From IMG/VR virus record IMGVR_UViG_3300049830_000285, positions 1 through 64,000 of that record: a DNA stretch of 64,000 bases; one strand, 5' to 3'. Both the position numbers and the translations under genes were made by a program. The notes under the pieces were generated by a model that saw only the letters and a list, made by a program, of their open reading frames with translations, searched no databases and was not told where the DNA came from. This stretch comes from a virus. Of this stretch, positions 12,577 through 50,240 are shown piece by piece; the stretch's first letter is position 1; each line of letters begins with the position of its first letter.

Positions 12577-13692
12577 ATGAAGTGTCTTACTTGTGAACAA
12601 AAGGGAGTGGTAATAGCAATGCTATTTAATGACATGCATCAAAAGCATGTTTGCCCAAGATGTTTCGCAGCAAATGAAGATAATATCCGCATTGCTCAAT
12701 TTGGTGGTGCTACTGGCGGAAGACCAAATGCATACTCTCCGGGCACATCACCTGCCGGCCAGGGTGGTGGAAGTAAAAATTATGGAATCAATGATTTTGG
12801 AGCAGACAAAACCATTGATTCTATAATTTCTGGAAGTCATAATCCACCACAAATTGATGAGCACCGCAACATCGAGCGTAGACTTGAAGTATATCATCAA
12901 CATAAAGAAGAAGATATGATTCCATACTGGTTAACCCCAGAAGAACGCGAAAAACTAAGAATTAAAAAAGAAGTGCGTAGACGAAATGAATGGTTGGAAA
13001 AATCCAAACACATGACAGACACAAATGCGGTTTCATATATTCAAAGAAATTTTCAGCCAAAGCCAGAGCACATGTCTACATTGGAGTCCCAGTTAATCAA
13101 TAGACACAAGTACAAGCCTGGGGATAAATCAAAATATGAAGACGAACTGCCGCCTGTTGCTAAGCCCGAACGAATTCACATGGCTCAAACAACAACACAC
13201 GGACGAACAAGTCCGTTTGACTCTACTACAGATGACGAAGAAGAAGCAGCGTATCCCAATTTTGACAATATCAGAATGAAAACACCACTGGGTGTTGGCA
13301 ACGCCCCTACTTTTGATAAAGGTTCAGAACTTGATGAATATTTAGACAAAGCATATAAGGCAGACTGGGGTGGATTAGAAGGGCCAAATGAGCCTACGTT
13401 GATGGACATTCCTAACGCAGATAATATCGGAAATCATTCGTGGGGATTTGGAGACAAAATTCCGTCTGCTGTTCATGGCGAAATAGATAGCGACTTAGAT
13501 GCATTTATGCCACTTGAACAACAGCTTGAAAGTACCAAAAGGCAAGAATCGCCCTTGCGCAATCCAAATGACCCATTTAGCTACTGGAGCGAATACGAAA
13601 CTGCGAAAGGTGTCGGAACACCTGGGGAGCCACTTGGCTTTGCTGATAAATATAGTGGCGGTTCATTCAATCCAAGCCCTATTCCTCGCTAA
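12577..13692 (+). CDS. Probable virion/internal head protein with N-terminal Zn ribbon
   Basis: CLTC..CPRC followed by RIAQ and a disordered body; lies in the head module after a putative late promoter. Confidence 0.55.
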   Translation: MKCLTCEQKGVVIAMLFNDMHQKHVCPRCFAANEDNIRIAQFGGATGGRPNAYSPGTSPAGQGGGSKNYGINDFGADKTIDSIISGSHNPPQIDEHRNIERRLEVYHQHKEEDMIPYWLTPEEREKLRIKKEVRRRNEWLEKSKHMTDTNAVSYIQRNFQPKPEHMSTLESQLINRHKYKPGDKSKYEDELPPVAKPERIHMAQTTTHGRTSPFDSTTDDEEEAAYPNFDNIRMKTPLGVGNAPTFDKGSELDEYLDKAYKADWGGLEGPNEPTLMDIPNADNIGNHSWGFGDKIPSAVHGEIDSDLDAFMPLEQQLESTKRQESPLRNPNDPFSYWSEYETAKGVGTPGEPLGFADKYSGGSFNPSPIPR

Positions 13693-15554
13693 CGCTTGGT
13701 GTGTAACCTGACTTGTTTGCTATTTTTCATCTTTGAAAAATAGACTTCTTTTGGCAAAATGTTTAAATCATAAACCATTGGCACGAGCACATTAGTTAAT
13801 GATTTGTGCTTTTGCTTGTATTCTGTGTACATACTGTTAATCAATTGGCTTGGTGCATTTTGTCCACACAATGCTTTTCTCCATTGATACCAACCAGAAT
13901 CATCTCTGTTTAGTTGATATTTTGCTTCTGCCAAGTGCTTGTATGGGAGAAGCATTTCGTATAACAAGTTACAGTGTTTCAACAATTCAGATGAATGTGA
14001 ATTTATTTCATTGTTTGATAGCCACTCATTCACATAACCGCCCAACCAAAAAAAATGATTCTTAATATCAACTTGCTCGCCATTATAGTTCGCGATTAAG
14101 CTAGCAGAGTGATTGAAATTACTAAACAGCAACCATACAATGAGATTATTTTTCAAATTTATGTAATCATCATGAGAAATGTCAGGCGCATTAAATTGGT
14201 CTTTATCATTTAGCCATGTTCCTTTAATAATAGCTCTCAATCCAAGCGCGACCAAGGATTCCTCGAAATTCTCTTTAGTGATTCCCCATCCACTGCCGTT
14301 AGCATAAGGCGCTGACAATAAATATGCTTGTTTGGAGTGCATCACGTCATTTGCGGCAAATACGGCAAATCCCATAGCGTCTTCGGGTAATTTGGTTAGA
14401 TTAATAGTTTTGTCGGGTGACGCCACTGTGATAGCGCTAGTAAATGGTACAGAATCAATAGTGTTTTTCGGACGCTTCACCCACTTGCTCAATGGTGCTG
14501 AAGGGGTAAAAAACGCCTTCTTACCAACTAATTTACGATTTTCATAAACATCTACATCAACTGATTTTTGGCTGCCAGATGATGACCAAATACTAAATAC
14601 AACGGGCCATTCTCCAGTCGTTCCTTCGAACTCGCTGCAATGAAAACAAAAACCATCAATAAACTTAAATGAGCTTAACCACTCTTGGTAAAACGATGAA
14701 TATGTTGGATTCATCGCAAATGATATTTGAGTGAACATTCCCACAGTAACATTCAAGTTATACTTATCGACCAGTTGTTTGATTTTCCATAAAAACTGTG
14801 TTGTAAGATTGGATGAGGCTTTATTCATCGCGGCTTCTTTCATCAAGGCACCTATTCGAGTATCTGCGACTCCCTTTTTATGGTCATCTCTTATGGTTGG
14901 GCTGGCAGAATATGGCGGGTTCAAGATAAACACCCACTCTGTGGATGTTTCAAGAAAATCATAATTCATATCAGAGTTAAGAAAATCTTGTGAAAACACA
15001 TGCCCGTTTTTGAATTTAGAACTGTTTAATATGTCAACATCTTCCGCGTTCAACGTTGACATATATAGCTGAGAATGCATTTCATTTGGACATTTTTTCG
15101 TAAGATTTCCAGTGCCACAACACATATCCCACCATGGCGTGGTGTACATTTTTTCACCAAGGTGCTTTGATAAATATGCATGTCCCAAGTCAGCATAAAA
15201 AGTGGGTGTGAAAAATTCGCCATCTGTTCTTCTAGACCACAAATCCACCAATCTATCTTTTTGTGATGTGATTTCGTTTAAGTTACCAGGCCTTGCATAT
15301 TTACCCCAGAATTCAAGATACGCCCAATGATTTAATTGAACATCTCCGCTCGCTGTTTGAACAGTATGGTGATACACGTCATATGTTCCGCGCTCACTTA
15401 TATCTTCAAAAAAAGCTTGTACATAAGTTTGCGTATCATGTCCCTCTGGCGCAAATTTCATCCATTCGTCAAATACTTTGTCGAAATTATTGGATGTAAT
15501 ATATGTTTTTGTCGGCTCAAAGTCATCGAGCATTTTTAACAAATTGTTTGCCAT
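13689..15554 (-). CDS. N6-adenine DNA methyltransferase with long TRD-like C-terminus (Type IIG-like, no obvious nuclease domain)
   Basis: GEFFTP, motif I DMCCGTGNL, catalytic ILNPPY. Start placed at 15554 (or 15569); the track's 15758 start overlaps glf. Confidence 0.85.
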   Translation of the reverse strand: MANNLLKMLDDFEPTKTYITSNNFDKVFDEWMKFAPEGHDTQTYVQAFFEDISERGTYDVYHHTVQTASGDVQLNHWAYLEFWGKYARPGNLNEITSQKDRLVDLWSRRTDGEFFTPTFYADLGHAYLSKHLGEKMYTTPWWDMCCGTGNLTKKCPNEMHSQLYMSTLNAEDVDILNSSKFKNGHVFSQDFLNSDMNYDFLETSTEWVFILNPPYSASPTIRDDHKKGVADTRIGALMKEAAMNKASSNLTTQFLWKIKQLVDKYNLNVTVGMFTQISFAMNPTYSSFYQEWLSSFKFIDGFCFHCSEFEGTTGEWPVVFSIWSSSGSQKSVDVDVYENRKLVGKKAFFTPSAPLSKWVKRPKNTIDSVPFTSAITVASPDKTINLTKLPEDAMGFAVFAANDVMHSKQAYLLSAPYANGSGWGITKENFEESLVALGLRAIIKGTWLNDKDQFNAPDISHDDYINLKNNLIVWLLFSNFNHSASLIANYNGEQVDIKNHFFWLGGYVNEWLSNNEINSHSSELLKHCNLLYEMLLPYKHLAEAKYQLNRDDSGWYQWRKALCGQNAPSQLINSMYTEYKQKHKSLTNVLVPMVYDLNILPKEVYFSKMKNSKQVRLHTKR

Positions 15555-15558
15555 ACAC

Positions 15559-15582
15559 AGCTTATACATGACTGTATAAGCT
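15559..15582. promoter_or_regulatory. Palindromic back-to-back promoter/operator
   Basis: AGCTTATACA-TGAC-TGTATAAGCT, a perfect 10-bp inverted repeat between the divergent MTase and glf starts. Confidence 0.6.
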
Positions 15583-15589
15583 ATATGTA

Positions 15590-16696
15590 ATGAAATACGA
15601 CTATCTAATTGTTGGAGCTGGGCTTTTCGGATGCACCTTTGCGCATGAAGCTCACAAGCACGGCAAAAAGGTACTCGTAATAGAAAAGAGACCGTATATC
15701 GGGGGAGATTGCCACACCGAGGAAATGGAGGGCATTCATGTTCATTTACACGGGCCACATATATTTCATTGCTCGCAGAAGTATTTATGGAATTATATCA
15801 ATCAGTTCGCGAGTTTTAATAATTTTCAATTAAGAGTTAAGGCAAACTACAACAACAGACTTTATTCATTTCCAATCAATCTGAGCACGATGCATGAAGT
15901 TTGGGGTGTGACAACGCCAGCGGCTGGAAAAGATAAAATTGCCAACACACTTGTTCCGTGCGACAATCCAAAGAATTTTGAGGATTTTGCTTTGTCGCAA
16001 ATCGGAAGTGAATTATATCAAATGTTTATTTATGGATACACTAAGAAAGTATGGAGTAAGGAGCCCAAATTATTGCCATCATCCATTATTAAACGCCTTC
16101 CGTACAAACTCCATCACTGCGGTAGACACTACCCGGATACAGATATTTATGAAGGTATTCCCGTTGGCGGGTACACTCAAATCTTTGAAAAAATGTTAAA
16201 TGGAGTTGAGGTGTTGCTTAACACAGATTTTTTAAGCAACAAACAATATTACGAATCCCTTGCAGACAAGGTAGTTTACACAGGAGCACTAGACCAGTAT
16301 TTCAACTATGAACACGGTGCTTTGGAATTCCGCTCATTGCGATATCAACTTGAACGTCACGATGGTGATTATCAAGGGCATGCGCAGATTAATTACACCC
16401 ATGAAGATATTCCATGGATTAGAATTATTGAGCATAAGCATTTTGAGTTTAAAGCAAGTCTGCCGCACACTTATATTAGTAAAGAGTTTCCAGAGCCATA
16501 TGATGGCACAAATTTGCCATATTATCCTCTTAACGATGAAAAAAACAATGCTTTACAAAAAACATACCAACATCAGGCTAGTTTGATACCCAATTTAATA
16601 GTAGGCGGAAGGTTGGGCGAGTATCGTTATCAAGATATGGATATTGTGCTGGCAGCAGCATTACACACAGCTCGAAAGGAGTTCGAAGGAGCATAG
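15590..16696 (+). CDS. glf: UDP-galactopyranose mutase
   Basis: YDYLIVGAGLFG FAD motif, HLHGPHIFH, YGYTKKVW, PYYP, GRLGEYRYQDMD. Confidence 0.95.
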   Translation: MKYDYLIVGAGLFGCTFAHEAHKHGKKVLVIEKRPYIGGDCHTEEMEGIHVHLHGPHIFHCSQKYLWNYINQFASFNNFQLRVKANYNNRLYSFPINLSTMHEVWGVTTPAAGKDKIANTLVPCDNPKNFEDFALSQIGSELYQMFIYGYTKKVWSKEPKLLPSSIIKRLPYKLHHCGRHYPDTDIYEGIPVGGYTQIFEKMLNGVEVLLNTDFLSNKQYYESLADKVVYTGALDQYFNYEHGALEFRSLRYQLERHDGDYQGHAQINYTHEDIPWIRIIEHKHFEFKASLPHTYISKEFPEPYDGTNLPYYPLNDEKNNALQKTYQHQASLIPNLIVGGRLGEYRYQDMDIVLAAALHTARKEFEGA

Positions 16697-16708
16697 TAGA
16701 ACAACTTA

Positions 16709-17155
16709 ATGATGAATCATAATATTTGGATAAAAATAGCTAACATAGCGGATACGTTAGATAAGCAAGGTTTTTTTAAAGAAGCTGATGACTTAGATAG
16801 CGTGCTCAGAACAGCACAATATTATGTAAATCCTGGTGTCGTTCCCATTGATGACCGGATGATTCCTGGTGATGAAGTTTTTCCAGAAGCCGAAGAAAGC
16901 GAACAATTGCGTATGAAAAACATGGGCAGATATCGTGTTCCTGAATATTCATCCCTCCCTGGCGGCGATAATCCAGCATCTGAGAAAGGTAACAACATTT
17001 TCAATATGGATGGAACAGATAATATCGACGGTTTTGCACAAGTGGACGAATTCCCGTCGCCAAGTATGGACGGAAACACCAAAGCATATGAGTGGGACAA
17101 CTATCGTGGAGAAAATTCTCAACCGCCATACACCAAGCTAATGCCAAGAGGTTAG
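16709..17155 (+). CDS. Hypothetical protein with N-terminal shared helical tag
   Basis: IANIADTLDKQGFFKEADDLD followed by RTAQ. Confidence 0.65.
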   Translation: MMNHNIWIKIANIADTLDKQGFFKEADDLDSVLRTAQYYVNPGVVPIDDRMIPGDEVFPEAEESEQLRMKNMGRYRVPEYSSLPGGDNPASEKGNNIFNMDGTDNIDGFAQVDEFPSPSMDGNTKAYEWDNYRGENSQPPYTKLMPRG

Positions 17156-17209
17156 TTTTTCAAAAAGGTAAAACACACATTTTTCATTAAATAAGCAATA
17201 GAGGAAATC

Positions 17210-17737
17210 ATGCCACAACCAATCATTCCTATTCATCAAATGAACAATCTTGATTCTTTATTCGTTAGAGAATCTGAATCAGAAAATTACGACCATTTAC
17301 TAGGTTCGTTAAGCGCTATGCAGCAGCAATTAATGGGCGGCGCAGCAAGCGAAAAAACGGCGGCGCGATATAGTGACAACATGGTTAATCACCTTGAGGC
17401 TATCTCCCAAGAAGAAGAAGAATTATTAACGGTGGCTAACTCAATGATTTCCGTTGGGCGAACTGGACAAACATATTATCGTGTTCCAAAAACAATATCT
17501 GACTCGGAATTAATTGGCTTAAAGACTCAGGGATTGGTTGTTGGAAGCGGCAGGGTTGTTGCATTTACAGACCGAGCTAAGGTGGCGCTTCGCGAAAGAT
17601 GGCTGATTGCTGAAAACACTTTGAAGAAAAATCGCGTTAAAGATGGTTTCGACCATCCTATGAAAACTGCGGAAACTTCTGATAAATTTACACGAACATC
17701 TGAAAGAAAAAGAAAAATTATTGTATCAGAGGAGTAA
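17210..17737 (+). CDS. Hypothetical protein (head module)
   Basis: 175-aa ORF with GAGGA RBS. Confidence 0.65.
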   Translation: MPQPIIPIHQMNNLDSLFVRESESENYDHLLGSLSAMQQQLMGGAASEKTAARYSDNMVNHLEAISQEEEELLTVANSMISVGRTGQTYYRVPKTISDSELIGLKTQGLVVGSGRVVAFTDRAKVALRERWLIAENTLKKNRVKDGFDHPMKTAETSDKFTRTSERKRKIIVSEE

Positions 17738-17738
17738 C

Positions 17739-18551
17739 ATGACTAAAATGATTAATGGTGTGCCTCTTCAAGCGCATGCTGAATCTATTGCTAAAACAAT
17801 GCATGAATTAGCGCAATGGAGTAAAGCACACCCAAATTCAAGAAAATATCACCGCAACTTAATCAAGCTGCCGCCTGTGTTTTTGTTGAATAATGATAGT
17901 CACGGCGACGGATTACAAAATTTGATTGCCATAATCAAAACGATTGGAGACTATGAAGATGGCGATATTAACGGCAATTATCCAAAATTAGCCGACCTAC
18001 CAGATATCTACAATGCATACAGCGGTAAGCCAGTGCTATCTAATAAGGATTTGCGAAAAATCCACAATTGGGTTCAACAAGTTAGCTTCGGCATTCGTGC
18101 AGCTATTATGGAGCAAGAAGAGCAAAAGCCGCTTTTTGCAGATTGGGATAAGTTTACTACACCCGAGCGAGTTTTTCGAAGACTGTATTTACACAACCAC
18201 AGACGTTCATTTATCACATGTTCTCCGACTAATAAAAATGAATACAAGCCATTAAGATATGCAGATGAAACCATTAAGATGAAATTAATCGAACAAGAAT
18301 ATGAACAACGTCGAAATAAAAAATCATCTACCAAGTATGGTGCTAAGCTAACAAATCAAGAATGGCAACAATACGGATTATCTGGACAACCTGTAAGACA
18401 TATGCGAAAAGAAATAGAAGAAAAGATATCAGTTTTACTCACGCTTGCTGAAAAACACGACATTGATGGTGAATATGAGCAGGCAGATGGCATTACGCAG
18501 AGAATAAATAATATGAATGCCGAATTAGCAACGCTGGAAAGTAGAACCTAA
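17739..18551 (+). CDS. Hypothetical protein with C-terminal shared helical tag
   Basis: GAGGAG RBS before ATG 17739; ends LLTLAEKHDIDGEYEQADGIT. Confidence 0.65.
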   Translation: MTKMINGVPLQAHAESIAKTMHELAQWSKAHPNSRKYHRNLIKLPPVFLLNNDSHGDGLQNLIAIIKTIGDYEDGDINGNYPKLADLPDIYNAYSGKPVLSNKDLRKIHNWVQQVSFGIRAAIMEQEEQKPLFADWDKFTTPERVFRRLYLHNHRRSFITCSPTNKNEYKPLRYADETIKMKLIEQEYEQRRNKKSSTKYGAKLTNQEWQQYGLSGQPVRHMRKEIEEKISVLLTLAEKHDIDGEYEQADGITQRINNMNAELATLESRT

Positions 18552-18564
18552 TGGAGACAAGTTA

Positions 18565-21033
18565 ATGAAGTTTTTAAGATTGAATGAATATCACCCGGTG
18601 CGAACAGCAGAGGTTATCGAAGCGCTAAGCGTTTATGACATATTGCATGAAATACGCAATGAAATCCGAGCTGCAAAGGCGAACGGGCGTGTTATTACGG
18701 CTTCAATGAACCTCTTTAGCTTAAAAATTGCAAAAACAATAGAAAGTCAATCGAGCACGACGACGCTTTTGTCAAACATGGCAGAAGAATTAGCACATAT
18801 TAAGGCGAAAAACCCAGACCCCGAAGGACAAAAACAAGCTATTTCCAGTTGGCTTTTTGGCCCACGTGGACATTGGACTTTTCTGTGGGAGTCGCTTTAT
18901 GAAAATTATTTACCGCGCTTAACTAAAGCTTTAGTGAGAGGATTCGGCGGCACACCTCCTGTTGATGAAGAGGCTGCCAACGATATTGCCATGAAAGCAA
19001 TTGGTGAGTTCATGGAGCAAAAAGATAGCGCCTCCGTGGTTTCAGCGTTAGCTCAATTTGATTCATCCAAAGGCTCTTTGATGACATGGCTTGAGGGTGG
19101 TATACGATGGACAACTCAGCGAATGGTTAGGAATCATCTTAAATTACAGAATAGCGAAACTAGCACAAATCAAAAAATTGGTGATAATGATGATACCGAA
19201 ATGGGAGAAATGCTTCCAGACAAGAGTGCCGAAGACCCATTTGATATTGTTGATTATACTGAAAAAACAGATAGGCTCATTTCAACATTTGCGCGTTACA
19301 GAAGAACACTGAAAGAGCAAATCGAGCACTCTGACAATCCAGCAGAAAAATTTAAGCTTCAGAATCTTTTGCAGCATATCAGCAATCCCGCAAATGATGT
19401 TTCTCAAAAAATCGCAACATTGAAAAACACAGCAACTGATATTGATATAATTAATGATGAATTAGCTGATACAAAAAGCGAAAAACAAAAATTATTTTCC
19501 ACTCTAAGTGGAAAAAACCCAGACGCTAATACACTTAATATGGCTAAAACATATATTGAGAAATTCAAACAGAAAATTATCAAGCTAAACACAGCGATGG
19601 AAAAGAAAGTTGAAGCTTTTAATGCAATTTATTCTGAATTAAATGACATGGCACAATATGATGCAGAAACTGGCGCAACTCGAATTGAACCAGAGATGCC
19701 TGCACCAGCGCCAATGCAACAAGAAGTTGCGCCTGGGGTAGAGGCTGAGCCAGGAGAAATGGCACCAGAACAATCTCCGATTGTAGATGAACCCATGATG
19801 CGAACCAAGGCGATTGGTAATCGTGTTATTTTAAGCCCTGCTGACCAAAAAATAATGGAAGATAGAATGCGGGCTTCTCGCGATAAATTGAGACCAGAAA
19901 TCTATCGGTCGGTGTCTTTTCCTGACAAGAAAAGAGATTTAAAACAACGTTCTAATAATTTATTTAATCTAAAAGAGGTTTCAGATAATATTACAACACA
20001 AGATGATTTAGACCACTTGATTCAAGGCGACTTTTCCAAAGCATCTGTGCAAGCAATATATTCTGACATTTTTGTGCGCGGCATGTTATATGTTAGAGAC
20101 CAGGCAGCAATGGATAAAGCTTATTCCCCTGAAATTATTTCCGACTCTGAAGAAATGCGAAGGGCTTTAAGTAAGTTTAGTGATTTTGTAATCAACGAGG
20201 TAAACAATAATCCAAATTTACAAGCAAAAGAAGCTGAATATAAATCTTTACCAGCTCAAGAACAAATTCAAGTTGCTTCAAGTTTGAACAATCTATCACC
20301 TGTGGGTTATGTATTACATAGTTTGAAAAAATTAGTTGACGATGACGAAATAAAAAAAGACGGAACAATAAAAACTCAAGCAGGAAAGGAAAACAAATTT
20401 AGAACATTGTATGAATATTTCGACCATGCGGCTCGTGCGTCTGCATATGGAGCTTATAAAGATGAAGCGCTTAAAGACGAAAATTGGGAAAAATTAACAG
20501 ACGAAGAAAAAGCTATACGAATCGAAGAATTTAAGAAAAGAGGATTTGATGATTTGACAGACGAAGAACGAGCACGAATTTCTAAAAAAGTTTATGAAGA
20601 CCAATATGGTGCTGGGCATCGAGGAATGTCTACAGGAAGATTACGAGATAAAAGTATAGAAACAAAGAAATTTGAACCAAGATATCCACAGAAACCGGAT
20701 ACCGATGGAAGTAGATATCAAGAAATTATGAATAGAGAGCTGTGGAGAATTGGGCGAGAGAAAGCAAGGGGAAATCCGATAAATGCGCCCAGATATCCTG
20801 ATGAACAACATCATCAATATCGAAACCCAGCTTGGGGCACGGATAGTTGGTATGAAATTTCTGACAATCCTGAGGATTTTAAGAATGCAAACAAGCCACA
20901 AAAAGGAGACACACTGGCTCAATCTGGTGTTATTGAATTTCTTCTTAGAATTGCAAATGAATTTGATAATCACGGTTTTTATCGAGAAGCCGAAATGACA
21001 AATAATGATATTAAGCGTTTAATTCATGGATAA
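18565..21033 (+). CDS. Large protein with sigma-70 region 2/3.2-like domain and C-terminal shared tag; probable virion-packaged protein
   Basis: LYENYLPRL..., FDSSKGSLMTWL...IRW, STNQKIGDNDDTEMGEMLPD; ends LLRIANEFDNHGFYREAE. Confidence 0.65.
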   Translation: MKFLRLNEYHPVRTAEVIEALSVYDILHEIRNEIRAAKANGRVITASMNLFSLKIAKTIESQSSTTTLLSNMAEELAHIKAKNPDPEGQKQAISSWLFGPRGHWTFLWESLYENYLPRLTKALVRGFGGTPPVDEEAANDIAMKAIGEFMEQKDSASVVSALAQFDSSKGSLMTWLEGGIRWTTQRMVRNHLKLQNSETSTNQKIGDNDDTEMGEMLPDKSAEDPFDIVDYTEKTDRLISTFARYRRTLKEQIEHSDNPAEKFKLQNLLQHISNPANDVSQKIATLKNTATDIDIINDELADTKSEKQKLFSTLSGKNPDANTLNMAKTYIEKFKQKIIKLNTAMEKKVEAFNAIYSELNDMAQYDAETGATRIEPEMPAPAPMQQEVAPGVEAEPGEMAPEQSPIVDEPMMRTKAIGNRVILSPADQKIMEDRMRASRDKLRPEIYRSVSFPDKKRDLKQRSNNLFNLKEVSDNITTQDDLDHLIQGDFSKASVQAIYSDIFVRGMLYVRDQAAMDKAYSPEIISDSEEMRRALSKFSDFVINEVNNNPNLQAKEAEYKSLPAQEQIQVASSLNNLSPVGYVLHSLKKLVDDDEIKKDGTIKTQAGKENKFRTLYEYFDHAARASAYGAYKDEALKDENWEKLTDEEKAIRIEEFKKRGFDDLTDEERARISKKVYEDQYGAGHRGMSTGRLRDKSIETKKFEPRYPQKPDTDGSRYQEIMNRELWRIGREKARGNPINAPRYPDEQHHQYRNPAWGTDSWYEISDNPEDFKNANKPQKGDTLAQSGVIEFLLRIANEFDNHGFYREAEMTNNDIKRLIHG

Positions 21034-21400
21034 GCAAGCTGAGTTTAGGGTTCGATTTGTCGCCAATAACATTGCTGACAGAACGAAGGGGTTAATGTTC
21101 GCATCTCCGTTGGATGATGATGAAGTGGCTTTATTTGTTTTTCCATACAGCGATAGATATGGATTTTGGAATAAAAATGTATCATTTCGGTTAAGTTTGG
21201 CTTTTCTAGATGAAAACCAAAAGATTGTAGATATTAAAGATTTAGAGGCACAATCTCACGCATTGGTATCTCCAGACCATGATGCAAAATATGTTGTTGA
21301 GGCACAAAGTGGTGCATTTGACAGACTAGGAATTAAAACTGGCGACTTTTTGGTGTTTGACGCAAGTCAAAATAAACTAAAAACAATAAAAAAAGCTTAA
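21026..21400 (+). CDS. DUF192 family protein
   Basis: RTKGLMF, FWNKNV.F.L.LAF.D and YVVE motifs. Confidence 0.85.
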   Translation: MDKQAEFRVRFVANNIADRTKGLMFASPLDDDEVALFVFPYSDRYGFWNKNVSFRLSLAFLDENQKIVDIKDLEAQSHALVSPDHDAKYVVEAQSGAFDRLGIKTGDFLVFDASQNKLKTIKKA

Positions 21401-21488
21401 TTTTTTGAAAAAGGCAGGAACCACTAACACTTTTTTCAAAAAATATTCTAACACATGCGCATTTGCGTATACGTGGGAGAATACAACA

Positions 21489-22520
21489 ATGGCAGAAAGA
21501 ATTTTTCCAACTCAGCCCCAAGAACAGCTTGGTAGCAAATTGGTTTTTAACGGTATCGACATTGATACATTGATGACCAAATTGGCTGAAACACAAGATG
21601 ACACCAAAAAAGACGGCTTGTCTCCTGAGCTTCGCGAACAGATTGCGGCAATGAAATTAAACATTGTTACTAGCGATAAGGATGATGATGACGTATGTCA
21701 GTCATGCGGTATTGCAGACGCCGTAGAAGGCGGCGATTTATGCAAGAATTGCAAAAAAGATACACGAGAAGCAAAGAAAGCTATTCCTGAAGCATTTAAA
21801 GCTCATATGTTCAAGTCTAAAGACGCGAAAGATGAAGAGGGCGATGAAAAAGAGGGCGATGAAGGAGAAAGCGATGTTGTTGAAGGCAAAAAAGCCGAAG
21901 CGCGACGACGACGAATTCGATTTACAGCAGCTTCTCAGCTTTCACCAGAAGCAGCAGCCGCTGCTAAAGAGCAAGGCGACGAAGAATTGTTTAATGCAAT
22001 TTTGGCTGCGCGAAGTGATGTTCGAGTTCGAGAAGCACAGCGCTTGATTTCCCTTAGCGAAGAAGCCTTGAAGCGAGAAGCATCAAGCGTCACCAAGAGA
22101 AGTGCCTACCGAATGTCAGTTGTTAAGAATGTTGAAGACACACGACGAGCTATTGCTAGCACAGATTCGAAAGAAAATAACTCTGATTTCAAGTCAGTAA
22201 AGTCTATGACTGATGATGAAAGAAACTATTTCCGACGCACAGCTTTGGCTAAAGGTCTCCCAGAAGAGTATGTAGATAACATGTTTGCTGTAGAAGATAA
22301 TTCTAGTGCAGATACTTCGATTGAAGCAAGTATTCGAGACATCATGGCATCCACATTGGCTGTTGATACCAAGAAGGCAGCAGTTGGCGGTTTGGTAAAG
22401 ACTGCTATGCTCGACAGTGAGAATATTGCTCGATTGAAGAAATACTGGAAAGACGACCTCGGTTATGGCGACGAAGCTTGGATTGATGACTTGTTCACCA
22501 CCAAGTATGACAAAAAATAA
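21489..22520 (+). CDS. Probable internal head protein
   Basis: GGGAG RBS before ATG 21489; CQSC..CKNC, acidic linker, helical C-terminus. Confidence 0.6.
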   Translation: MAERIFPTQPQEQLGSKLVFNGIDIDTLMTKLAETQDDTKKDGLSPELREQIAAMKLNIVTSDKDDDDVCQSCGIADAVEGGDLCKNCKKDTREAKKAIPEAFKAHMFKSKDAKDEEGDEKEGDEGESDVVEGKKAEARRRRIRFTAASQLSPEAAAAAKEQGDEELFNAILAARSDVRVREAQRLISLSEEALKREASSVTKRSAYRMSVVKNVEDTRRAIASTDSKENNSDFKSVKSMTDDERNYFRRTALAKGLPEEYVDNMFAVEDNSSADTSIEASIRDIMASTLAVDTKKAAVGGLVKTAMLDSENIARLKKYWKDDLGYGDEAWIDDLFTTKYDKK

Positions 22521-22574
22521 TCCAAAAGGTTGTATTCTCTGTGCCCTGGTAATTCCAGGGCACATAAGGACAAA

Positions 22575-22790
22575 ATGAAAGAAGGAATTGGAAGAGAAGA
22601 AACCCGAAATTTGGAGCCTTATATTAAAAGACTCGAAAAATTGTTGGCCCAGTCATCTGACCGTCAACATAAAATCGGCAATACAACCGGAAACAATGTC
22701 GCTGGAAATAACACGAAACATTTACCAAATTTTTCGACCAACAGCATTATTGATTCACAACTATGGAAAAAAGACAATAGCGGGAGCTAA
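22575..22790 (+). CDS. Small hypothetical protein
   Basis: AAGGA RBS after the hairpin TGTGCCCTGG/CCAGGGCACA (22540-22564). Confidence 0.45.
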   Translation: MKEGIGREETRNLEPYIKRLEKLLAQSSDRQHKIGNTTGNNVAGNNTKHLPNFSTNSIIDSQLWKKDNSGS

Positions 22791-22795
22791 ACACC

Positions 22796-23695
22796 ATGAG
22801 CAAATTTAGAAGAGTAGAAGAAACACAAGCCGTTCCACAATATATTGATGAACGATTTGCTGGCACAAGTAATGACGACCCATACAAAAAACTTCGTGAA
22901 GGTCGTCAGGATAGACAAATGAAGATTGCTTCTCAAGAAATGGGAAGCCGTAGAGTGGAATCTCCAAAGGTTAATGAATGGGAACATCGTGAGTCTCAAA
23001 GCGAGTATGTTCAACCGTCAATGATGAGAGAATTTGACGAACAGTTAACAAGATTTAGCGCGGCTGACGTAAATCCAAATTCAGTTCGACGTTTAGACAC
23101 TGGATATGACGCTGGATTAAATACACGTTCTGCTGGAAATCAATTATTTGTAACTGAAACCGACGCTATTGATTTGATTCGAAGAGGAGCCTCTATGTGG
23201 AACTCAGACTTTGATGATATTTCAAGAGTATGCAATGCATCTATGTCTGAAAATGATGATGTATTTCAAGACCAAGAGAAGCGACGAAGTGCGCGGCAGG
23301 CGAGTCATCAAAAATGGGAAAAGAAAGCTTCACGACGCGAAATGCTTGGCAGAACCAATGTTCTTGACCGCGCAGGCGCAGTTGTTAGAAACTCGTTCCG
23401 AAATGAATATGATACAGCAACTGGTTTTGGTATGCCAAATTATGATTCTGTTTTAGAACAGGAAAAAACTCGAATGCAGCAACAACAAGAATCGCGAGAA
23501 TCACGGCTTGAATTGAAGCGACGAGGATATAGCCCAGAAGAGCGACAAAGCACATGGGAAGAGCATGCAACGCGAGCCGTACATGCTTCAAGATTCCAAG
23601 ATGTAAAGCTTGATTGGGTTGACCGCTATGTTCAGAAATATGACGACGACGACAACAATCAGGTTGATTTATCACAAGAATTGAGACGACGTTAA
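22796..23695 (+). CDS. Hypothetical charged protein (head module)
   Basis: 299-aa ORF in a tightly packed operon. Confidence 0.65.
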   Translation: MSKFRRVEETQAVPQYIDERFAGTSNDDPYKKLREGRQDRQMKIASQEMGSRRVESPKVNEWEHRESQSEYVQPSMMREFDEQLTRFSAADVNPNSVRRLDTGYDAGLNTRSAGNQLFVTETDAIDLIRRGASMWNSDFDDISRVCNASMSENDDVFQDQEKRRSARQASHQKWEKKASRREMLGRTNVLDRAGAVVRNSFRNEYDTATGFGMPNYDSVLEQEKTRMQQQQESRESRLELKRRGYSPEERQSTWEEHATRAVHASRFQDVKLDWVDRYVQKYDDDDNNQVDLSQELRRR

Positions 23696-23704
23696 GGTGT
23701 AATA

Positions 23705-24748
23705 ATGGCGTACAATTTTGTCAAAGCACAAATGGTACCCGCTGCGCAAGAACCTATTGATGCCTCTAATCCCGCAAGTGGCATCAATAACATTCAAATG
23801 CAAGGTGGAGTGGACGCTGGAGGCGCTAATAGTGGCGCTCCTGGCGCTGAGGGTGGAGTGCCAGCAGCCGAAGCCAAAAGGTTGTTAAATCAAGTTGCTG
23901 CCGCTGGGCTGAAAGCACCAGAGTTTAAAGGTGTTGTTGAAGATTTATACAATCGCGTTACAGACCCAATTATTCAAGAGAAAGTTGGAAAGCTAATGCA
24001 GGCGCTTGAGAAAAATAACGACCCACGCTCACAAACAACAGACCCACAAACTGGGATTAAAGACCCGACTGCATCAGAAATGGCGCAACAATTAGTTATG
24101 GAGATTAACGAAATGGAAAAAAGAGATAGAGCCGAAGAAAGTGCAAAAGCTGCAAACAGCAAATATTTTAACCTTCGTGAATCTGCTGCCGCTAAGGGCA
24201 AAAAGAAGAAAAGAGATTCACGCGGTAATCCATTTAAAGTTTTGATGGGTAAGGTCGGTAAGCTTTTAGACCATGGTATTTCTAAAAAAGATATTGTCAG
24301 ATTTTTGCTCAAAGAAGGTCACTGGAATGAAGACACTGTTGAAAAAGCAGTTAATTTAGTTCGAGATTATAACAAAAAGAAACGTGGAGGCAGTGAAAGT
24401 AAAAAAGATGATACAGATAAGCAAGAAACTACTGCATCCATGCAGAAAGACAATACTGTGGCAAAAAACAGTTTTAATCTTAAGCGATATGCGCAAACTT
24501 CTTTAGAGTTAGACGGAATCTATGGTATTCAGCCAGAATGGTCTAAACGCTCTACTGCTGAGTTAATTATGCGTGCAGCTTGGTTGTTATCTTTACAAGA
24601 TTACGACGAAAATACGCGACAAGGTGATAGTAGAAAAGCAGCCAGCAAAAAGGGTGTAACAGCTCAATTGAAAGATATCAAAAAAGCTTTAACGGAACGC
24701 GGGTTTGATGGCGAAGAATTGTTCACAAACCTGAAAAGGAGAGTTTAA
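23705..24748 (+). CDS. Probable internal head protein
   Basis: 347 aa; NFVKAQ, FNLRESA and FNLKRYAQ motifs. Confidence 0.65.
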   Translation: MAYNFVKAQMVPAAQEPIDASNPASGINNIQMQGGVDAGGANSGAPGAEGGVPAAEAKRLLNQVAAAGLKAPEFKGVVEDLYNRVTDPIIQEKVGKLMQALEKNNDPRSQTTDPQTGIKDPTASEMAQQLVMEINEMEKRDRAEESAKAANSKYFNLRESAAAKGKKKKRDSRGNPFKVLMGKVGKLLDHGISKKDIVRFLLKEGHWNEDTVEKAVNLVRDYNKKKRGGSESKKDDTDKQETTASMQKDNTVAKNSFNLKRYAQTSLELDGIYGIQPEWSKRSTAELIMRAAWLLSLQDYDENTRQGDSRKAASKKGVTAQLKDIKKALTERGFDGEELFTNLKRRV

Positions 24749-24749
24749 T

Positions 24750-26264
24750 ATGGATAAGATGAAAGTAAAAACTATTTTGTCAGAAACGAAAGAAATGGAA
24801 ACAAAAGACAAAGAGCCAAAAGAAAAGGAAATACCAGAAGCTCCAAAGGAGAAAGAAACATCAGAGGCTCCAAAGGAGAAAAAGATGCCAGAAGCTCCAG
24901 CATTAATTGGCGGCGGCGGATTGTTAGAACTTATTCATGACACTATTGGTCGTATCACTGATATTCTTCAAGAAGCTAGTAGCGGGGCAAAAGCCCACGG
25001 CGAAAATGAAGATAAAGTAGAATTTGTTGATGATGCGCCAGAGGATACAAATATCAAAGCTCTTCCGTTTGCTGGTGAAAAATCTGACGCATGTGGCATG
25101 TTGGCTGAAGATGATTTAAAGAATATGGTTCCTGGCGACAATATTGTCACTGAAGAATCGCCAATCAATGAAATGAAGAATAAACCCTTTTCCATTGAGA
25201 TTTTAAATGATAATGATTTCGATAATGCAGACCCAGTGGTTAATAACTTCAAGAATGAAATGGGCGGCGTTGGTGGAATGATTAAGATTCTGAAAATTAG
25301 CGGGCCGAATTCTTTAGAAAAACTTGCCGTTATGTATGACAAGTTGAATCAGATTCGAATAGCTAATAGGGCAACCGAGCTACAAGAAGTATTTCAACAC
25401 GTAAATAATCTTGCTGCTGGTAAAGGTGCGAGACATCAGCTTATTGCAGTTCAGAAGCTTGAAAAATTAGCAAAAGATTCTTCAAAAGAAGAGCGTTTTG
25501 CTTTGCTGAAAGCAAAAGATGCCATTTTAGAAGGCACAGCTCAGCATCTTGATGCTGCTGGTTTTAGAATTCGAGGTGTTTTCTCACAATATGCGCCAGA
25601 AAAGATGGTAAGAACAGCTTACACTAATTTGGAAACACAATCTGGGGAACTTATTATGATGCCGCAAGGAAAACATCAACTTGGATATCCCACAACCCTT
25701 GAACTTTCAAAATTTAGAGACCATAGTGTAGATGCTAAAATTGACCCAAATACAGGCGAAGTTAAAAACGGCTATGTGGGATTTGAGCAACGACGAGACA
25801 ACATGGAAGCTGCCAGAAATCGTTTTGAAATTCATAGAAATCCAGTTAACGATGAGTCGCTTTTAACTTTAGCCAAAAATGAAAGAGCTAAGCCATTAAC
25901 TAAAAACGAGCGAAACTTCGAACAAAGACTTGATGAAGATGTTAAGGGAAGATATGACGAGAAATCATGGGAAAAAAGCAGAGAGCAAATGCTTGATGAC
26001 ACCCCTGAGGCAAAACTTGGACATCACGGTGAACCCAAAGAAGACGAAAGTATCGCAAGAACTTTATCTAAAACAGCGCAAAAGTACGATAAAATTGACC
26101 CTAAATCAGACGACACTCTTGGTGGACAAATTGCTAATAGTCACAAAGATATTAAAAAAGATATGACTCTTGAAGAAATGTTAGATGACGAAAGAGTTGG
26201 TTTAACTGACGAAGAATTAGATATGTTGCTTGAAGAATGGCTTGAAAAATCTCGGGAAGATTAA
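24750..26264 (+). CDS. Probable internal head protein
   Basis: 504 aa, acidic, with VRTAY and SKTAQ sites. Confidence 0.65.
   Translation: MDKMKVKTILSETKEMETKDKEPKEKEIPEAPKEKETSEAPKEKKMPEAPALIGGGGLLELIHDTIGRITDILQEASSGAKAHGENEDKVEFVDDAPEDTNIKALPFAGEKSDACGMLAEDDLKNMVPGDNIVTEESPINEMKNKPFSIEILNDNDFDNADPVVNNFKNEMGGVGGMIKILKISGPNSLEKLAVMYDKLNQIRIANRATELQEVFQHVNNLAAGKGARHQLIAVQKLEKLAKDSSKEERFALLKAKDAILEGTAQHLDAAGFRIRGVFSQYAPEKMVRTAYTNLETQSGELIMMPQGKHQLGYPTTLELSKFRDHSVDAKIDPNTGEVKNGYVGFEQRRDNMEAARNRFEIHRNPVNDESLLTLAKNERAKPLTKNERNFEQRLDEDVKGRYDEKSWEKSREQMLDDTPEAKLGHHGEPKEDESIARTLSKTAQKYDKIDPKSDDTLGGQIANSHKDIKKDMTLEEMLDDERVGLTDEELDMLLEEWLEKSRED
24816..24899 (+). repeat. 3 x 27-bp coding tandem repeat (PKEKExxEA)
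   Basis: PKEKEIPEA PKEKETSEA PKEKKMPEA P. Confidence 0.85.
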
Positions 26265-26269
26265 GAATT

Positions 26270-26800
26270 ATGTGGTATCGACAGGCTCAGGGTTTTGGTG
26301 GGGGAGTTTTAAGTCCCGTTGAAGTTGCTATTCAACGGGCTTTATCTCCCAATTCTGCATCATCCGTGACGCCAGATGCCTCAATTATTCCCGCACAAGA
26401 TGGCCAGGTTGAATCAACCGATAATCAAGAGCAATCACCCATGAATGAAAACCCAGATGCTTATGAGCAAAGGATTTGGGATACATTAGTAAATCGAACC
26501 GATGGTGCGCAGGCAGATGGTGTGAGTGTTGATGGTGGAAAAATAAGTGGCGATGGCGGGGCTGTTGAAGCAGGCGATGCCCGAAGATTATCACCTTTTC
26601 ATCAGAATCCAGAAGAAACCACAATGGAAGAGCAGTTAGAGTCTGTTCGTCAACAAAATGTCAACACTGACCCAACACAATCTATGTCTTCAACTGAAAA
26701 CAGTAGAGGTAACGAATTGGTTCGGGGTGAATTCCCACATGCATCTGGAAAAGGTTGGAATGGTTATGAAGATTTGCCCTCAGATAAAAGCTGGGCTTAA
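26270..26800 (+). CDS. Hypothetical protein with MWYxxAQ N-terminus
   Basis: Starts MWYRQAQ, remainder disordered; immediately upstream of the portal. Confidence 0.6.
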   Translation: MWYRQAQGFGGGVLSPVEVAIQRALSPNSASSVTPDASIIPAQDGQVESTDNQEQSPMNENPDAYEQRIWDTLVNRTDGAQADGVSVDGGKISGDGGAVEAGDARRLSPFHQNPEETTMEEQLESVRQQNVNTDPTQSMSSTENSRGNELVRGEFPHASGKGWNGYEDLPSDKSWA

Positions 26801-26837
26801 CTGTATAACTATAATACAACATTTCTTGGTGTAAATC

Positions 26838-29270
26838 ATGGCTAATAATAATAACAAAGCGGAGGGACTAGACGTTGCAATTGCGTCAGCAGCAAGAGAA
26901 GCTCTTGGTAAAAAGTCCACCCGTACCGCAGCAAGCACAACCCCACCTGGTGCGAATTCTTCAGAACATGTTCCACTTCCGGGTGTCCGAACGGGGCGCA
27001 TGGATGGAACGGTTACCAGGCGAATGGGGCAGTTCTCGGGCGGTGGTAGTAATACCAGCTTAGGGCCACCATCATTTTACGCACCATGGTTAACCGCATC
27101 TTCTTGGCAAATACCCAATAATAGAAAGGAAATCTATTTATGGGCACAATGGTGGGTTGATAACGAACCTAAAGTTGCCGCTGGTATTGAATTTTACACA
27201 GATTTTCCATTAAGTGGCTTTACACTTGAATGCCCAAATGCTTATGTTAAAGATTACTTTGAGAAGTTGAACAAAAAGCTGAAAATCAGTAAGAAAAATC
27301 CGCAAATTTCTCAAGAATATCATCTTAGGGGAGATTGTTTTGTTTTAGCCTCGCTAGAGTGCGAAAAATGTGGTGGAATGAATGAAGACCCCGATACGGG
27401 TGAACCGTGTAAACACGAAGGCGCTTCGTGGAAGGGATTGTCAATTTTAAATCCAGACCACATTGAAGTTCATCCAGCTATGCTCGACCAAGAGCCAGAA
27501 TATTTCTTCTTACCAGATGATATGATGAAAAAAGTAGTTCAGGAAAGAAGACCTGAAAAACTTTATAATTCAATGAGACCAGAAATGCGAAAGCTGATTT
27601 TAAGCGGTCAGCCAATTCATTTCTCTCCAGAATGTATTTATCACTTTAAGCGCGGCGGTCAACCCTGGCAGCCATTTGGTACCTCTCTTTTGCGTCGATT
27701 GTTCCAGACTCTTGCTTATAAGGATAAATTGCGTCAAGCTCAATGGTTGGTTGCAGAACGACACATCATTCCTATTAAAATCGTTAAGATTGGTGATAAA
27801 GACCGACCCGCAACAGAAGAAGATTTGATTGATGCACAAGACGAGCTTACAGCCCTCGCAAATGACCCTCTTCTTACTATTGTAACTCACCACGCATTTG
27901 ATTTTGATTATGTTGGCGCAAGCGGTAAGGTGCTGCAACTAACAAATGAATATGAAAATCTAAACCAAGATATTATTGATGGCTTGATGTTAAATAAAGC
28001 TATTATTAATGGCGAAGGGCCGTCATATAGTAATGCTCAAGTTGGATTGCTTACAATGGCTAAAAGACTTGAAAGATTCCGAGAAGAAGTGGCATTCTGG
28101 ATGGAAGAGCATCTTTATAAACCAGTTGCTATGTGGAACGGATTTACCACAGAAGGTAAGCGTGGTCAAATCGAATATGTTTACCCGACAGTAAAATTTG
28201 ATGATTTGCAATTACGAGATGACACCGGAAAGTTACAAACACTATTAGCTGCAAATCAGGCTGGTATTGTTTCAAATCAATCTGTTGTTGAAGCTTTGGG
28301 ATTACCATATGACCAAGAAGTTGAAAGACTTAGATTTGAACAAGGTTCTTCATTTATATCTTCACCAGACTTAATGAACACTGACATGAATAATGGATTT
28401 GGTCAAGGCGCGGGCGGCATGGGCAACGGCTTCCGTGGCCCAATTCCAGGGGCTCCGGGTGGTGCTCCAGGTGGCGCATCTCCAAGTGCCCCGATGGGAG
28501 CACCAGATATGGGCGGCATGCCTGGTTTGGCACCAGCAGCGAGTAATGACTGGAAAGCTAATTATAGATTTGCTTCCACGGTCAGCGGGGATATGTATGA
28601 TGTTCAATTGGCAACATGTCAAAATGAGCGCATTATTCGAACAGCTAGTAGAAAAATTCTCAGTCAAGCACATAAGGAATACATTGAAAGCATCGCACCA
28701 GTAACGGGAAGAGGCGCTTTGGGCGCTCTAGATATAGAGCCAAATGATGTATTTTCACAACTTGCTTTTGGGCCGAATGATGGTGGGCCGTTCTGTACTG
28801 CTATGAATAGAGCAGCTATGTATGAGATTATTCAATTTGATAAAGAAATGACTAATCGAGGCATGGTAAGAACTGGCGCTAAGAAAGGTGAAACCAAGCA
28901 AACATATCGCTTTACATCATTGGAACAAAAGCTATATCGACTCTTAATGCAAGCTGGATTACCTTTTGCCTGGTATGCACAGTATCTTGCTGGGCCGATG
29001 ACACAGCACTTCGAATATCAACTAGATGCCGCTATCCCAGCTATTAAATTGGGATTGGAAGCGGACGGTGAAATCTATCATAGTAATCCTGAAAAAATTG
29101 CTAAAGATAGAAAACGAGACTCATTACTAGCAACACAAGGTTGGACAATACTTCGTTTCACTGAAAGCGAATTAAATGAACATCCAGAAGAAGTGTTAAA
29201 AGTTATTATGCAAATGATTAGAAGGCTGATGGGCGCTGGCGAACATGTCGGTTCTACCGTTATTTTGTAA
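26838..29270 (+). CDS. Portal protein fused to a C-terminal DUF559/Vsr-like endonuclease domain
   Basis: Portal-type core (PFGTSLL, HIIPIKIVKIG, NAQVGL) directly upstream of the protease. After a Gly/Pro linker comes LEQKL..., YQLDAAIP..KLGLEADGEIYH...DRKRD.LL..QGWTILRF. Confidence 0.8.
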   Translation: MANNNNKAEGLDVAIASAAREALGKKSTRTAASTTPPGANSSEHVPLPGVRTGRMDGTVTRRMGQFSGGGSNTSLGPPSFYAPWLTASSWQIPNNRKEIYLWAQWWVDNEPKVAAGIEFYTDFPLSGFTLECPNAYVKDYFEKLNKKLKISKKNPQISQEYHLRGDCFVLASLECEKCGGMNEDPDTGEPCKHEGASWKGLSILNPDHIEVHPAMLDQEPEYFFLPDDMMKKVVQERRPEKLYNSMRPEMRKLILSGQPIHFSPECIYHFKRGGQPWQPFGTSLLRRLFQTLAYKDKLRQAQWLVAERHIIPIKIVKIGDKDRPATEEDLIDAQDELTALANDPLLTIVTHHAFDFDYVGASGKVLQLTNEYENLNQDIIDGLMLNKAIINGEGPSYSNAQVGLLTMAKRLERFREEVAFWMEEHLYKPVAMWNGFTTEGKRGQIEYVYPTVKFDDLQLRDDTGKLQTLLAANQAGIVSNQSVVEALGLPYDQEVERLRFEQGSSFISSPDLMNTDMNNGFGQGAGGMGNGFRGPIPGAPGGAPGGASPSAPMGAPDMGGMPGLAPAASNDWKANYRFASTVSGDMYDVQLATCQNERIIRTASRKILSQAHKEYIESIAPVTGRGALGALDIEPNDVFSQLAFGPNDGGPFCTAMNRAAMYEIIQFDKEMTNRGMVRTGAKKGETKQTYRFTSLEQKLYRLLMQAGLPFAWYAQYLAGPMTQHFEYQLDAAIPAIKLGLEADGEIYHSNPEKIAKDRKRDSLLATQGWTILRFTESELNEHPEEVLKVIMQMIRRLMGAGEHVGSTVIL

Positions 29271-29443
29271 AAGTATTCTTTAGCAGGTGTTAGAGAATAC
29301 TTCACCAAATAAATGAATACAATAGCTTCAAAAACATCTTAATTTTTTGAAAAACTAAAGGTATCAGCCCAATTCTTGCAGAAATGCTCTATTAGACTGA
29401 TTTTCAAAAAACTTGAAGCGAAAAACAGGAGAAAGCCAACATT

Positions 29444-33760: not shown

Positions 33761-33776
33761 GAAAACTTAGTTATCC

Positions 33777-33808
33777 GGCTCCTAAGGCATCGCCTTGGGA
33801 GCCTTTTT
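33777..33808 (+). terminator. Intrinsic terminator
   Basis: GGCTCCTAAGGC-ATC-GCCTTGGGAGCC-TTTTT. Confidence 0.85.
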
Positions 33809-33887
33809 GGTTCATTATAAGCTTTTTTCACAGAATATGCCATGTTTTGCAGGTGAAAACAAAAAAGATTTAGAAGACATTAAGTGT

Positions 33888-33907
33888 TGCGAGAAATAGT
33901 TCTCGCA
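33888..33907 (+). promoter_or_regulatory. 5' leader hairpin of the scaffold-capsid transcript
   Basis: TGCGAGAA-ATAG-TTCTCGCA ahead of the GGGAG RBS for 33935. Confidence 0.4.
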
Positions 33908-33934
33908 CGAGACAGAAAGGGAGCAAGTCAGTAA

Positions 33935-35794: not shown

Positions 35795-35830
35795 TCGGTT
35801 TCGGAAATCTCTAGGAGGAAATAAAAAACA

Positions 35831-36508: not shown

Positions 36509-36546
36509 GGTTAGTGCCTAACGAGGAAAAGGAGAATTAAAAGAAA

Positions 36547-45745: not shown

Positions 45746-45796
45746 CAAAAGGAATAATGCTGCCGATTGGAGAAAAAATCTTTAATCGGTGGCATT

Positions 45797-50214: not shown

Positions 50215-50240
50215 AACATGAAATATTGTGTGGTGATGTC

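Follow-up and report, generated by a model that had tools for sequence, protein, structure and literature searches.

We examined a 64,000-nucleotide stretch of viral DNA (hereafter the window), the first 64 kb of the 177,708-bp record IMGVR_UViG_3300049830_000285, which stems from a phage known from metagenomes only and has a CheckV completeness estimate of 47%. On its plus strand, a single open reading frame (ORF; 18565..21033) runs uninterrupted through 822 amino acids (aa) and encodes a member of a small conserved protein family. We found that residues ~61-226 of this protein form a real but divergent sigma-70-family module, in which a sigma-2 fold is followed by a region-3.2 finger. In a sigma factor, -10 recognition and docking on the beta-prime clamp helices of RNA polymerase are tasks of the sigma-2 domain, and the region-3.2 finger extends into the active-site cleft and the RNA exit path. 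The gene is located between the gene of the large terminase (TerL) and those of the portal, a protease fusion and the capsid protein, in the same orientation. Taken as a whole, the best explanation is that the protein acts as a sigma-derived, region-4-independent partner of the host core enzyme that is tethered and possibly virion-delivered, a proposal to which we assign about an even chance.

The ORF starts behind a good ribosome-binding site (GGAG, 7 nucleotides (nt) 5' of the ATG). Its sigma-2-like domain, equivalent to regions 1.2-2.4, spans aa ~61-197 (18745..19155), was recognised by hhalign, ESM Atlas, AlphaFold and VIA-align, and contains an A-x-D-I-A helix and an FDxSxGxLxxWLxGG block. 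The region-3.2-like acidic finger (aa 198-226, 19156..19242) was delineated by Pfam Sigma70_r3, by PDB matches to RpoD and SigA and by conservation. It has the pattern E-x-S-x-N-x-x-I-G-D-N-D-D-T-E-x-G-E/D-M and includes the peptide STNQKIGDNDDTEMGEM (aa 200-216). An earlier interpretation made from the letters of the DNA (the sequence-only reading) had quoted this peptide, together with one beginning LWESLY, as a sigma region 2 followed by a region-3.2 finger. Both peptides lie where it had put them (LWESLY from aa 106, nt 18880), and its assignment is borne out by the profile and structure comparisons.

The Pfam Sigma70_r3 profile (PF04539) matches aa 185-227 with its positions 34-76 of 78. 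Against a cut-off of 25.3 bits, the full protein scored 24.8, and the aa 91-260 fragment and a six-frame search of the genome each gave 28.1; five of seven close family members are also matched by this profile. Searches of the PDB pick region 3.2 of SigA and RpoD, and the family profile matches region 3.2 of E. coli RpoD. When a profile of 17 family members was aligned by hhalign with one of 29 SigH-like sigmas, aa 113-222 of the 822-aa protein were matched with aa 28-132 of the latter (region 2 plus linker). The whole-protein profile gave Prob 90% and E 1.5e-6, and the profile cut to aa 95-240 gave Prob 95.3%, E 2.1e-8 and a score of 56.6 over 97 columns. A reversed template scored 12.6, and 20 column-shuffled templates scored 16.8 at most. 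Language-model features of aa 95-240 have the Sigma70_r2 clusters as their nearest neighbours, at 0.94, with 23 of 30 matches bearing that family set.

The predicted structure points to the same family. An AlphaFold model of aa 1-260 has a pLDDT (predicted local distance difference test) of 74.5 overall and of about 88 over aa 70-195. The top rows of VIA-align with this model are sigma-2 domains, M. tuberculosis SigH being the first (Z 7.3, 73 aa at 3.3 A), and further rows include an EcfG-type RpoE (Z 7.1), phiEco32 gp36 (Z 6.8), SigW (Z 6.8) and T4 gp55 (Z 6.3); sigma factors occupy about 20 of the 50 rows. In the Atlas fold search, five of eight rows belong to Sigma70_r2 families and a sixth is named a sigma-70 family factor (97-115 aa at 2.8-4.2 A), and all seven structure rows among the ESM Atlas model neighbours are sigma factors. 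In the AlphaFold model of the isolated region the finger (aa 200-225) has no ordered structure, as is to be expected of a free sigma. In sequence and in fold, the module is most closely related to group 3/4 sigma factors.

Several observations weigh against this assignment. With Pfam Sigma70_r2 (PF04542), neither the protein nor its fragments give a match at E <= 10, and a six-frame search of the genome retrieves only the two ordinary sigma factors of this phage. Foldseek finds no PDB match for the aa 1-260 model at E <= 1e-3 (best E 0.25), and the VIA Z scores, with a maximum of 7.3, are no higher than those often obtained by chance with helical models. The structural similarity to sigma region 2 that the sequence-only reading had anticipated is upheld by the top rows of VIA-align and Atlas and not by Foldseek significance, with the Foldseek list itself dominated by sigma chains. 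At the residue level, the helix A-N-D-I-A-M-K-A-I-G-E-F-M parallels the sigma helix A-E-D-L-V-Q-E-x-F-L-K-A-W, and the region-2.2 signature D-x-x-Q-E reads D-I-A-M-K in the 822-aa protein. The Q-E pair contacts the clamp helices, as sigma-70 genetics has established; in relatives of the phage protein its positions are N-D, E-E, D-D or Q-Q, in an alignment that is ambiguous next to an insertion. This insertion of ~9 residues past the 2.1/2.2 helix and a conserved G-G within the helix equivalent to region 2.3/2.4 mean that canonical docking and DNA melting are not assured. The case for sigma homology is made because separate lines agree, and not because of the Z scores alone.

The rest of a sigma factor is missing. 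Region 4, with which sigma factors bind the -35 element and the beta flap, is matched nowhere in the protein by PF04545 or PF08281, the hhalign alignment stops at the finger, and the AlphaFold model continues from there as a single long helix, so that the earlier remark that no region-4 helix-turn-helix (HTH) is evident agrees with all three. Regions 3.0/3.1 were not found anywhere in the protein and are taken as absent, the alignment to the Pfam region-3 model being confined to its second half. The module is sigma-derived and not a standard sigma; relative to the full family definition it lacks region 4 and stays below the Pfam region-2 threshold.

A family profile search of 1.8 billion representatives yielded 33 members, and no ordinary sigma at E <= 1e-3. 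The family is restricted to one clade of large phages, uncultured and about 160-205 kb in size, with phage-G-like capsids. Its full-length members have 724-961 aa and keep the architecture at identities down to 17%. In a comparison of members that are 17-67% identical, the finger core (aa 200-214) is the third most conserved 15-mer of the family and the FDSSKGSLMTWLEGG block the fifth, with the remaining top 15-mers falling in the C-terminal domain, the leader and a C-terminal tag. That the finger is disordered alone yet nearly invariant argues for a conserved external partner, for which the polymerase cleft would be the obvious candidate. Short stand-alone relatives of aa 95-240 were not found in a word-seeded search, tblastn of the 822-aa protein against 50,697 phage records gave no match, and in PHROGs nothing came up beyond a weak match of coiled-coil type, to a tail fibre family. 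Phage G gp7, encoded by a large gene upstream of the portal of that phage, was considered as a counterpart and found to be unrelated (hhalign Prob 0.2%).

The gene order around the family is conserved as well. Five contexts of relatives were read, three with DNA and two as gene lists only. A DUF192 gene lies directly 3' of the sigma-like gene in all five, and genes of ~150, ~175 and ~270 aa precede it in four of the five. On the long contigs the gene sits between terminase and portal, an order kept in relatives down to 17% identity. In the phage studied here the DUF192 (COG1430) gene (21026..21400, plus strand) shares its first 8 nt with the end of the sigma-like gene, stop codon included; the adjacency in all five contexts suggests that the two are a functional pair.

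Behind the finger, the protein continues with a long helical, coiled-coil-like segment (aa 227-375, 19243..19689), which has profile matches to SNARE/PspA-type coiled coils and of which the helix 231-254 is seen at the edge of the model. A variable linker rich in Pro, Glu and Ala (aa 376-415, 19690..19809), the part of lowest conservation in the alignment, connects it to a conserved all-alpha C-terminal domain (aa ~416-790, 19810..20934). The AlphaFold model of aa 412-822 has a pLDDT of 87.4 and a pTM (predicted template modelling score) of 0.88, with aa 416-790 all-alpha and confidently predicted. No relatives of this domain were found by features or fold in the PDB (Foldseek E <= 1e-3), in BFVD (searched with the model of this domain only) or in ESM Atlas, and its best VIA Z of 7.9 is to generic helical or TPR-like proteins.

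The last ~35 residues of the protein form a helical hairpin, the tag (20947..21030), recognised by a hidden Markov model (HMM) and in the structure model. Its consensus is h-h-x-I-A-x-x-h-D-x-x-G-x-h-x-x-A-D/E, and across all the ORFs that carry it the motif reads h-h-x-I-A-x-x-L-D-x-x-G-x-h-x-x-A-D. The sequence-only reading had described a shared tag at the C-terminus, and the tag HMM indeed finds it in eight otherwise unrelated ORFs of the genome, at the N-terminus in six and at the C-terminus in two, these two being the 822-aa protein and the product of the 276-aa gene directly upstream. Besides the copy in the 822-aa protein, the window has tag-bearing ORFs at 16709-17155, 17721-18551, 45767-46426 and 50226-50675, and the rest of the genome has them at 87802-88266 (minus strand), 130387-130971 and 130964-131503. 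The three neighbouring genes of the 148-aa, 276-aa and 822-aa proteins are likewise tagged in a relative of 40% identity, and two of them in one of 20% identity. The tag could be a loading signal or a hetero-oligomerisation motif. In many of the N-terminal copies, R-x-[AS]-[QN] comes next. An interpretation of the tag as a degenerate sigma-4 HTH was ruled out (hhalign Prob 0.1%), and neither Pfam nor PHROGs returned anything for the other tag-bearing proteins or the unnamed neighbours.

At the other end, an N-terminal leader of two helices (aa 1-60, 18565..18744) opens with a conserved MKFxR start. It contains the RTAE (aa 13-16, 18601-18612) and VITAS (aa 43-47, 18691-18705) sites that the sequence-only reading had seen ahead of the sigma-like domain. 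Both T-A-[E/S] sites are exposed in the model. The MKFxR...TAS leader is conserved, and the TAS of VITAS is kept even in distant relatives. Proteins of the head module (16700-36600, plus strand) carry 14 T-A-[E/S] motifs where 5.4 are expected, a number reached by one of 200 shuffles, and the rest of the genome shows no enrichment (34 against 31 expected). T-A-[E/S] may be the cleavage motif of the prohead protease, and the leader may be a propeptide with maturation-protease sites. The position in the head block, the T-A-[E/S] enrichment in the head module and the conserved leader together suggest packaging, and we regard the presence of the protein in the virion as a roughly one-in-three prospect. 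A number of points tell against it. The assignment of T-A-[E/S] to the maturation protease of this phage group is putative. The head block also holds non-structural genes (UDP-galactopyranose mutase and DUF192), so that gene position alone is weak evidence of packaging. The tag is also present in ORFs at ~88 kb and ~131 kb, a long way from the head block, and no similarity to a known internal, ejection or virion protein was found in PHROGs, in the 50,697 phage records or, for the C-terminal domain, in BFVD.

Genes on the same strand upstream encode a dUTPase, peptidases, a clamp loader, a beta clamp and the two ordinary sigma factors (3627-4265 and 6595-7188, plus strand), both identified by Pfam in the six-frame search and placed in the replication module. 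The 822-aa protein is hence the third sigma-like protein in the window, as had been supposed. The sigma at 3627-4265 is 50-55% identical to bacterial sigmas of SigH type that the Joint Genome Institute (JGI) names sporulation-specific, which indicates a Bacillota host. Its linker has S-L-D...E-E-D-S...A-D-F-I, the same type of motif as the finger of the 822-aa protein. The sigma at 6595-7188, used as a single sequence, gave no meaningful hhalign match. RNA polymerase genes were not found in the whole record and, together with the presence of two ordinary sigmas, this implies dependence on the host polymerase.

In the head block itself, TerL lies at 10343-12517 (plus strand). The sole minus-strand gene of the block (13689-15758) has N-P-P-Y in its translation, a motif typical of N6-adenine/N4-cytosine DNA methyltransferases, and no Pfam match at E <= 0.01. 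Within the terminase-to-portal part, UDP-galactopyranose mutase (15590-16696, plus strand) is kept at the same place in relatives, one of which adds a glycosyltransferase. The gene of the 822-aa protein belongs to a run of highly charged, unannotatable ORFs after the mutase gene, which includes upstream neighbours of 148 aa with the tag at the N-terminus (16709..17155) and of 276 aa with the tag near the C-terminus (17721..18551), both on the plus strand; the 148-aa gene is placed two positions beyond the 276-aa one. The neighbour at 21405-22520 was considered as a polymerase subunit and rejected; its weak RNA_pol_Rpb2_7 match covers C-x-x-C...C-x-x-C and was read as a zinc-ribbon resemblance. 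Farther downstream on the plus strand are a Mu-type portal (26838-29270) with a C-terminal DUF559/MTES_1575 endonuclease-like domain at aa ~726-794 and a 1438-aa protein (29444-33760) with a head-maturation-protease domain at aa ~84-246 and a zinc-ribbon match near its C-terminus. The portal-DUF559 fusion also occurs in the portals of relatives, one of them with a LAGLIDADG insertion, and the protease fusion is unusually large and kept in relatives. They are followed by the major capsid protein (36547-37407, plus strand), which is 47% identical to gp27 of Bacillus phage G. Phage G has a genome of 497 kb, and the relatives of the phage studied here sit on contigs of about 160-205 kb.

A scan of 12-30 kb for intrinsic terminators and consensus promoters returned nothing beyond shuffled expectation, all terminator-like sites being weak. 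By eye, terminators with a hairpin and a T-run are seen at ~8.1 kb (upstream of 8213) and at ~37.4 kb, just past the capsid gene, and bracket a block from ~8.2 to ~37.4 kb. Along with the conserved synteny, this agrees with the head-module location that had been proposed for the gene. Elsewhere in the genome (85014-87813), a CCA-adding/poly(A) polymerase-HD enzyme is split by an intein with a LAGLIDADG domain.

How might such a protein work? According to the best explanation, aa ~61-226 descend from a sigma-70-family factor that kept its sigma-2 domain and finger and lost regions 3.0/3.1 and 4. This module would occupy the sites for sigma-2 and sigma-3.2 on the host RNA polymerase core and act as a region-4-independent core partner in the manner of T4 gp55, upon which the core would gain a phage-specific specificity of the -10 type, and/or the host primary sigma (sigma A) would be excluded. 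The sequence-only reading had thought of '-10-only' promoters as possible sites of action. The coiled coil, the novel C-terminal domain and the hairpin tag would tether the protein to its tagged neighbours or oligomerise it with them. Finally, the protein would be incorporated into the prohead, processed at the candidate sites and delivered with the DNA at the next infection. That the protein grips host RNA polymerase is probable; incorporation and delivery are plausible and constitute the least supported step of the explanation. In the fullest version, a capsid-packaged and protease-processed sigma-like subunit would capture the host core via sigma-2 and finger, direct region-4-independent transcription of the entering phage DNA or block sigma A before any phage expression, and belong to a co-delivered set for which the tag is the loading or assembly signal. 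We hold this version to be doubtful.

Other accounts of the same protein differ in what the module would do at the polymerase and when. It could be a pure decoy that fills the sigma site and the cleft without initiation and shuts down sigma-A transcription, the two ordinary sigmas of the phage taking over later. The lack of a region 4 and of any detected region 3.0/3.1 leaves no reading head for a -35 or an extended -10 element. Both the D-x-x-Q-E signature and the 2.3/2.4 helix depart from the canonical form, and within the module conservation is highest in the finger, which would plug the cleft. Phage proteins that displace sigma are also known (PMC12276001; bioRxiv 10.64898/2026.10.05.756390). 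However, conservation of the loop and helix by which sigma factors read the -10 element (FDxSxGxL..W) equals that of the finger and would be superfluous in a plug. The phage's own sigmas would be in competition with the decoy, and known jammers are small, not multi-domain proteins of 800 aa. On this balance we consider jamming alone somewhat unlikely. Timing is the issue if the protein is never packaged and instead works late in the cycle in which it is made. It would then be a late sigma like gp55, or would couple RNA polymerase to another late machine by way of the coiled coil, the C-terminal domain and the tag, the tagged neighbours or DUF192 being examples. Structural resemblance to T4 gp55, a sigma-2-only factor, speaks for such a role, as do the translational coupling to DUF192 and the conserved adjacency with tagged neighbours, and the tags on ORFs at ~88 kb and ~131 kb argue against a purely capsid-targeting role. 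Yet a late sigma would ordinarily be produced ahead of the late genes and not from within the head-gene block, the replication module already has two conventional sigmas, and the TA[ES] enrichment and conserved leader suggest processing. We rate this late role as being on the unlikely side.

A further possibility dispenses with the polymerase altogether and takes the sigma-like fold as an exapted relic that serves as a structural or assembly module, for instance in a scaffold, an internal body or an ejection channel. Although the position in the head operon, the long coiled coil, the loss of the core-binding Q-E residues in this member and the lack of a detectable Pfam region-2 signal are compatible with it, the finger keeps I-G-D-x-D-D-[ST]-x-x-G-D-h in members less than 25% identical and is nevertheless disordered, which fits an external partner such as the polymerase cleft better than packing. 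An exapted relic is accordingly judged decidedly improbable. It is very improbable indeed that an acidic low-complexity stretch beside a helical bundle resembles a sigma by chance. The single-HMM score is borderline on the full protein (24.8 bits) and Foldseek E-values are 0.25 or worse, but independent lines concur, namely the Pfam region-3 match, hhalign with clean controls, the language-model neighbours, two structure searches and conservation in the family.

The region-4-independent partner of the host core that we favour can be set against several known systems. With SigH-like/ECF (extracytoplasmic function) group 3/4 sigmas, including the phage's own sigma at 3627-4265, the 822-aa protein shares the sigma-2 helical fold and a succession of patterns, A-E/x-D-h-h-x-x-A-h, then F-D-x-x-x-G-x-h-x-x-W-L, then a linker or finger of the type S-h-D/N...G-D-x-D...G-D-h-I. 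It is unlike them in having no region-4 HTH, a ~9-aa insertion, a module embedded in a larger protein and a location among head genes. Its finger is nearer to the consensus of the primary sigma RpoD/SigA (P-I-G-D-D-E-D-S-H-L-G-D-F-I-E-D) than to the phage's own sigma, whereas from the region 3 of RpoD/SigA it retains profile positions 34-76 only, the 3.0/3.1 helices being missing.

By proposed function, the closest analogue is the late sigma T4 gp55. A factor of 185 aa that attaches to the beta-prime clamp helices, gp55 has gp33 and the sliding clamp as its partners, and its gene lies outside the head operon. The two phage proteins (gp55: PDB 7d7c/7d7d) have in common a central sigma-2-like domain and the lack of region 4 (Foldseek prob 0.57, VIA Z 6.3); by contrast, they have no detectable sequence relation. 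For the jamming analogy, phiEco32 gp79 and mycobacteriophage D29 gp53 displace host sigma (PMC12276001; bioRxiv 10.64898/2026.10.05.756390), by sitting on the host RNA polymerase, either on the surfaces that bind sigma or in the RNA channel. They differ from the 822-aa protein in being small and not in head operons, and no sequence relation between them and it was seen. A survey of the literature, including work on jumbo phages and polyvalent proteins, found no sigma-derived domain in a head-operon or virion protein.

Capsid-packaged proteins that reprogram transcription at DNA entry are exemplified by T4 Alt, N4 vRNAP and the virion RNA polymerases of phiKZ/AR9 (PMC5512222, PMC7598289, PMC13434306). 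All of these are enzymes, an ADP-ribosyltransferase in the case of T4 Alt and RNA polymerases in N4, phiKZ and AR9, and none is a sigma-like subunit for the host core; the likeness is one of concept only, with no homology, and packaging of the 822-aa protein is putative. If it is packaged, a host-polymerase specificity subunit would be deliverable from a virion, and if a packaged sigma-like subunit proves true it would add a third route of immediate-early takeover to the two that use packaged polymerases or packaged modifying enzymes. The module would be a "minimal sigma" provided by nature, with which the capabilities of sigma-2 and finger alone on a core of Gram-positive type could be defined, and the C-terminal domain without a known relative and the shared hairpin tag are two further uncharacterised modules. 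Known phage control of host transcription operates through stand-alone sigmas, small inhibitors, modifying enzymes and whole packaged polymerases; what is different here is a conserved sigma-2 and finger module without region 4 inside an 800-residue protein of a head operon.

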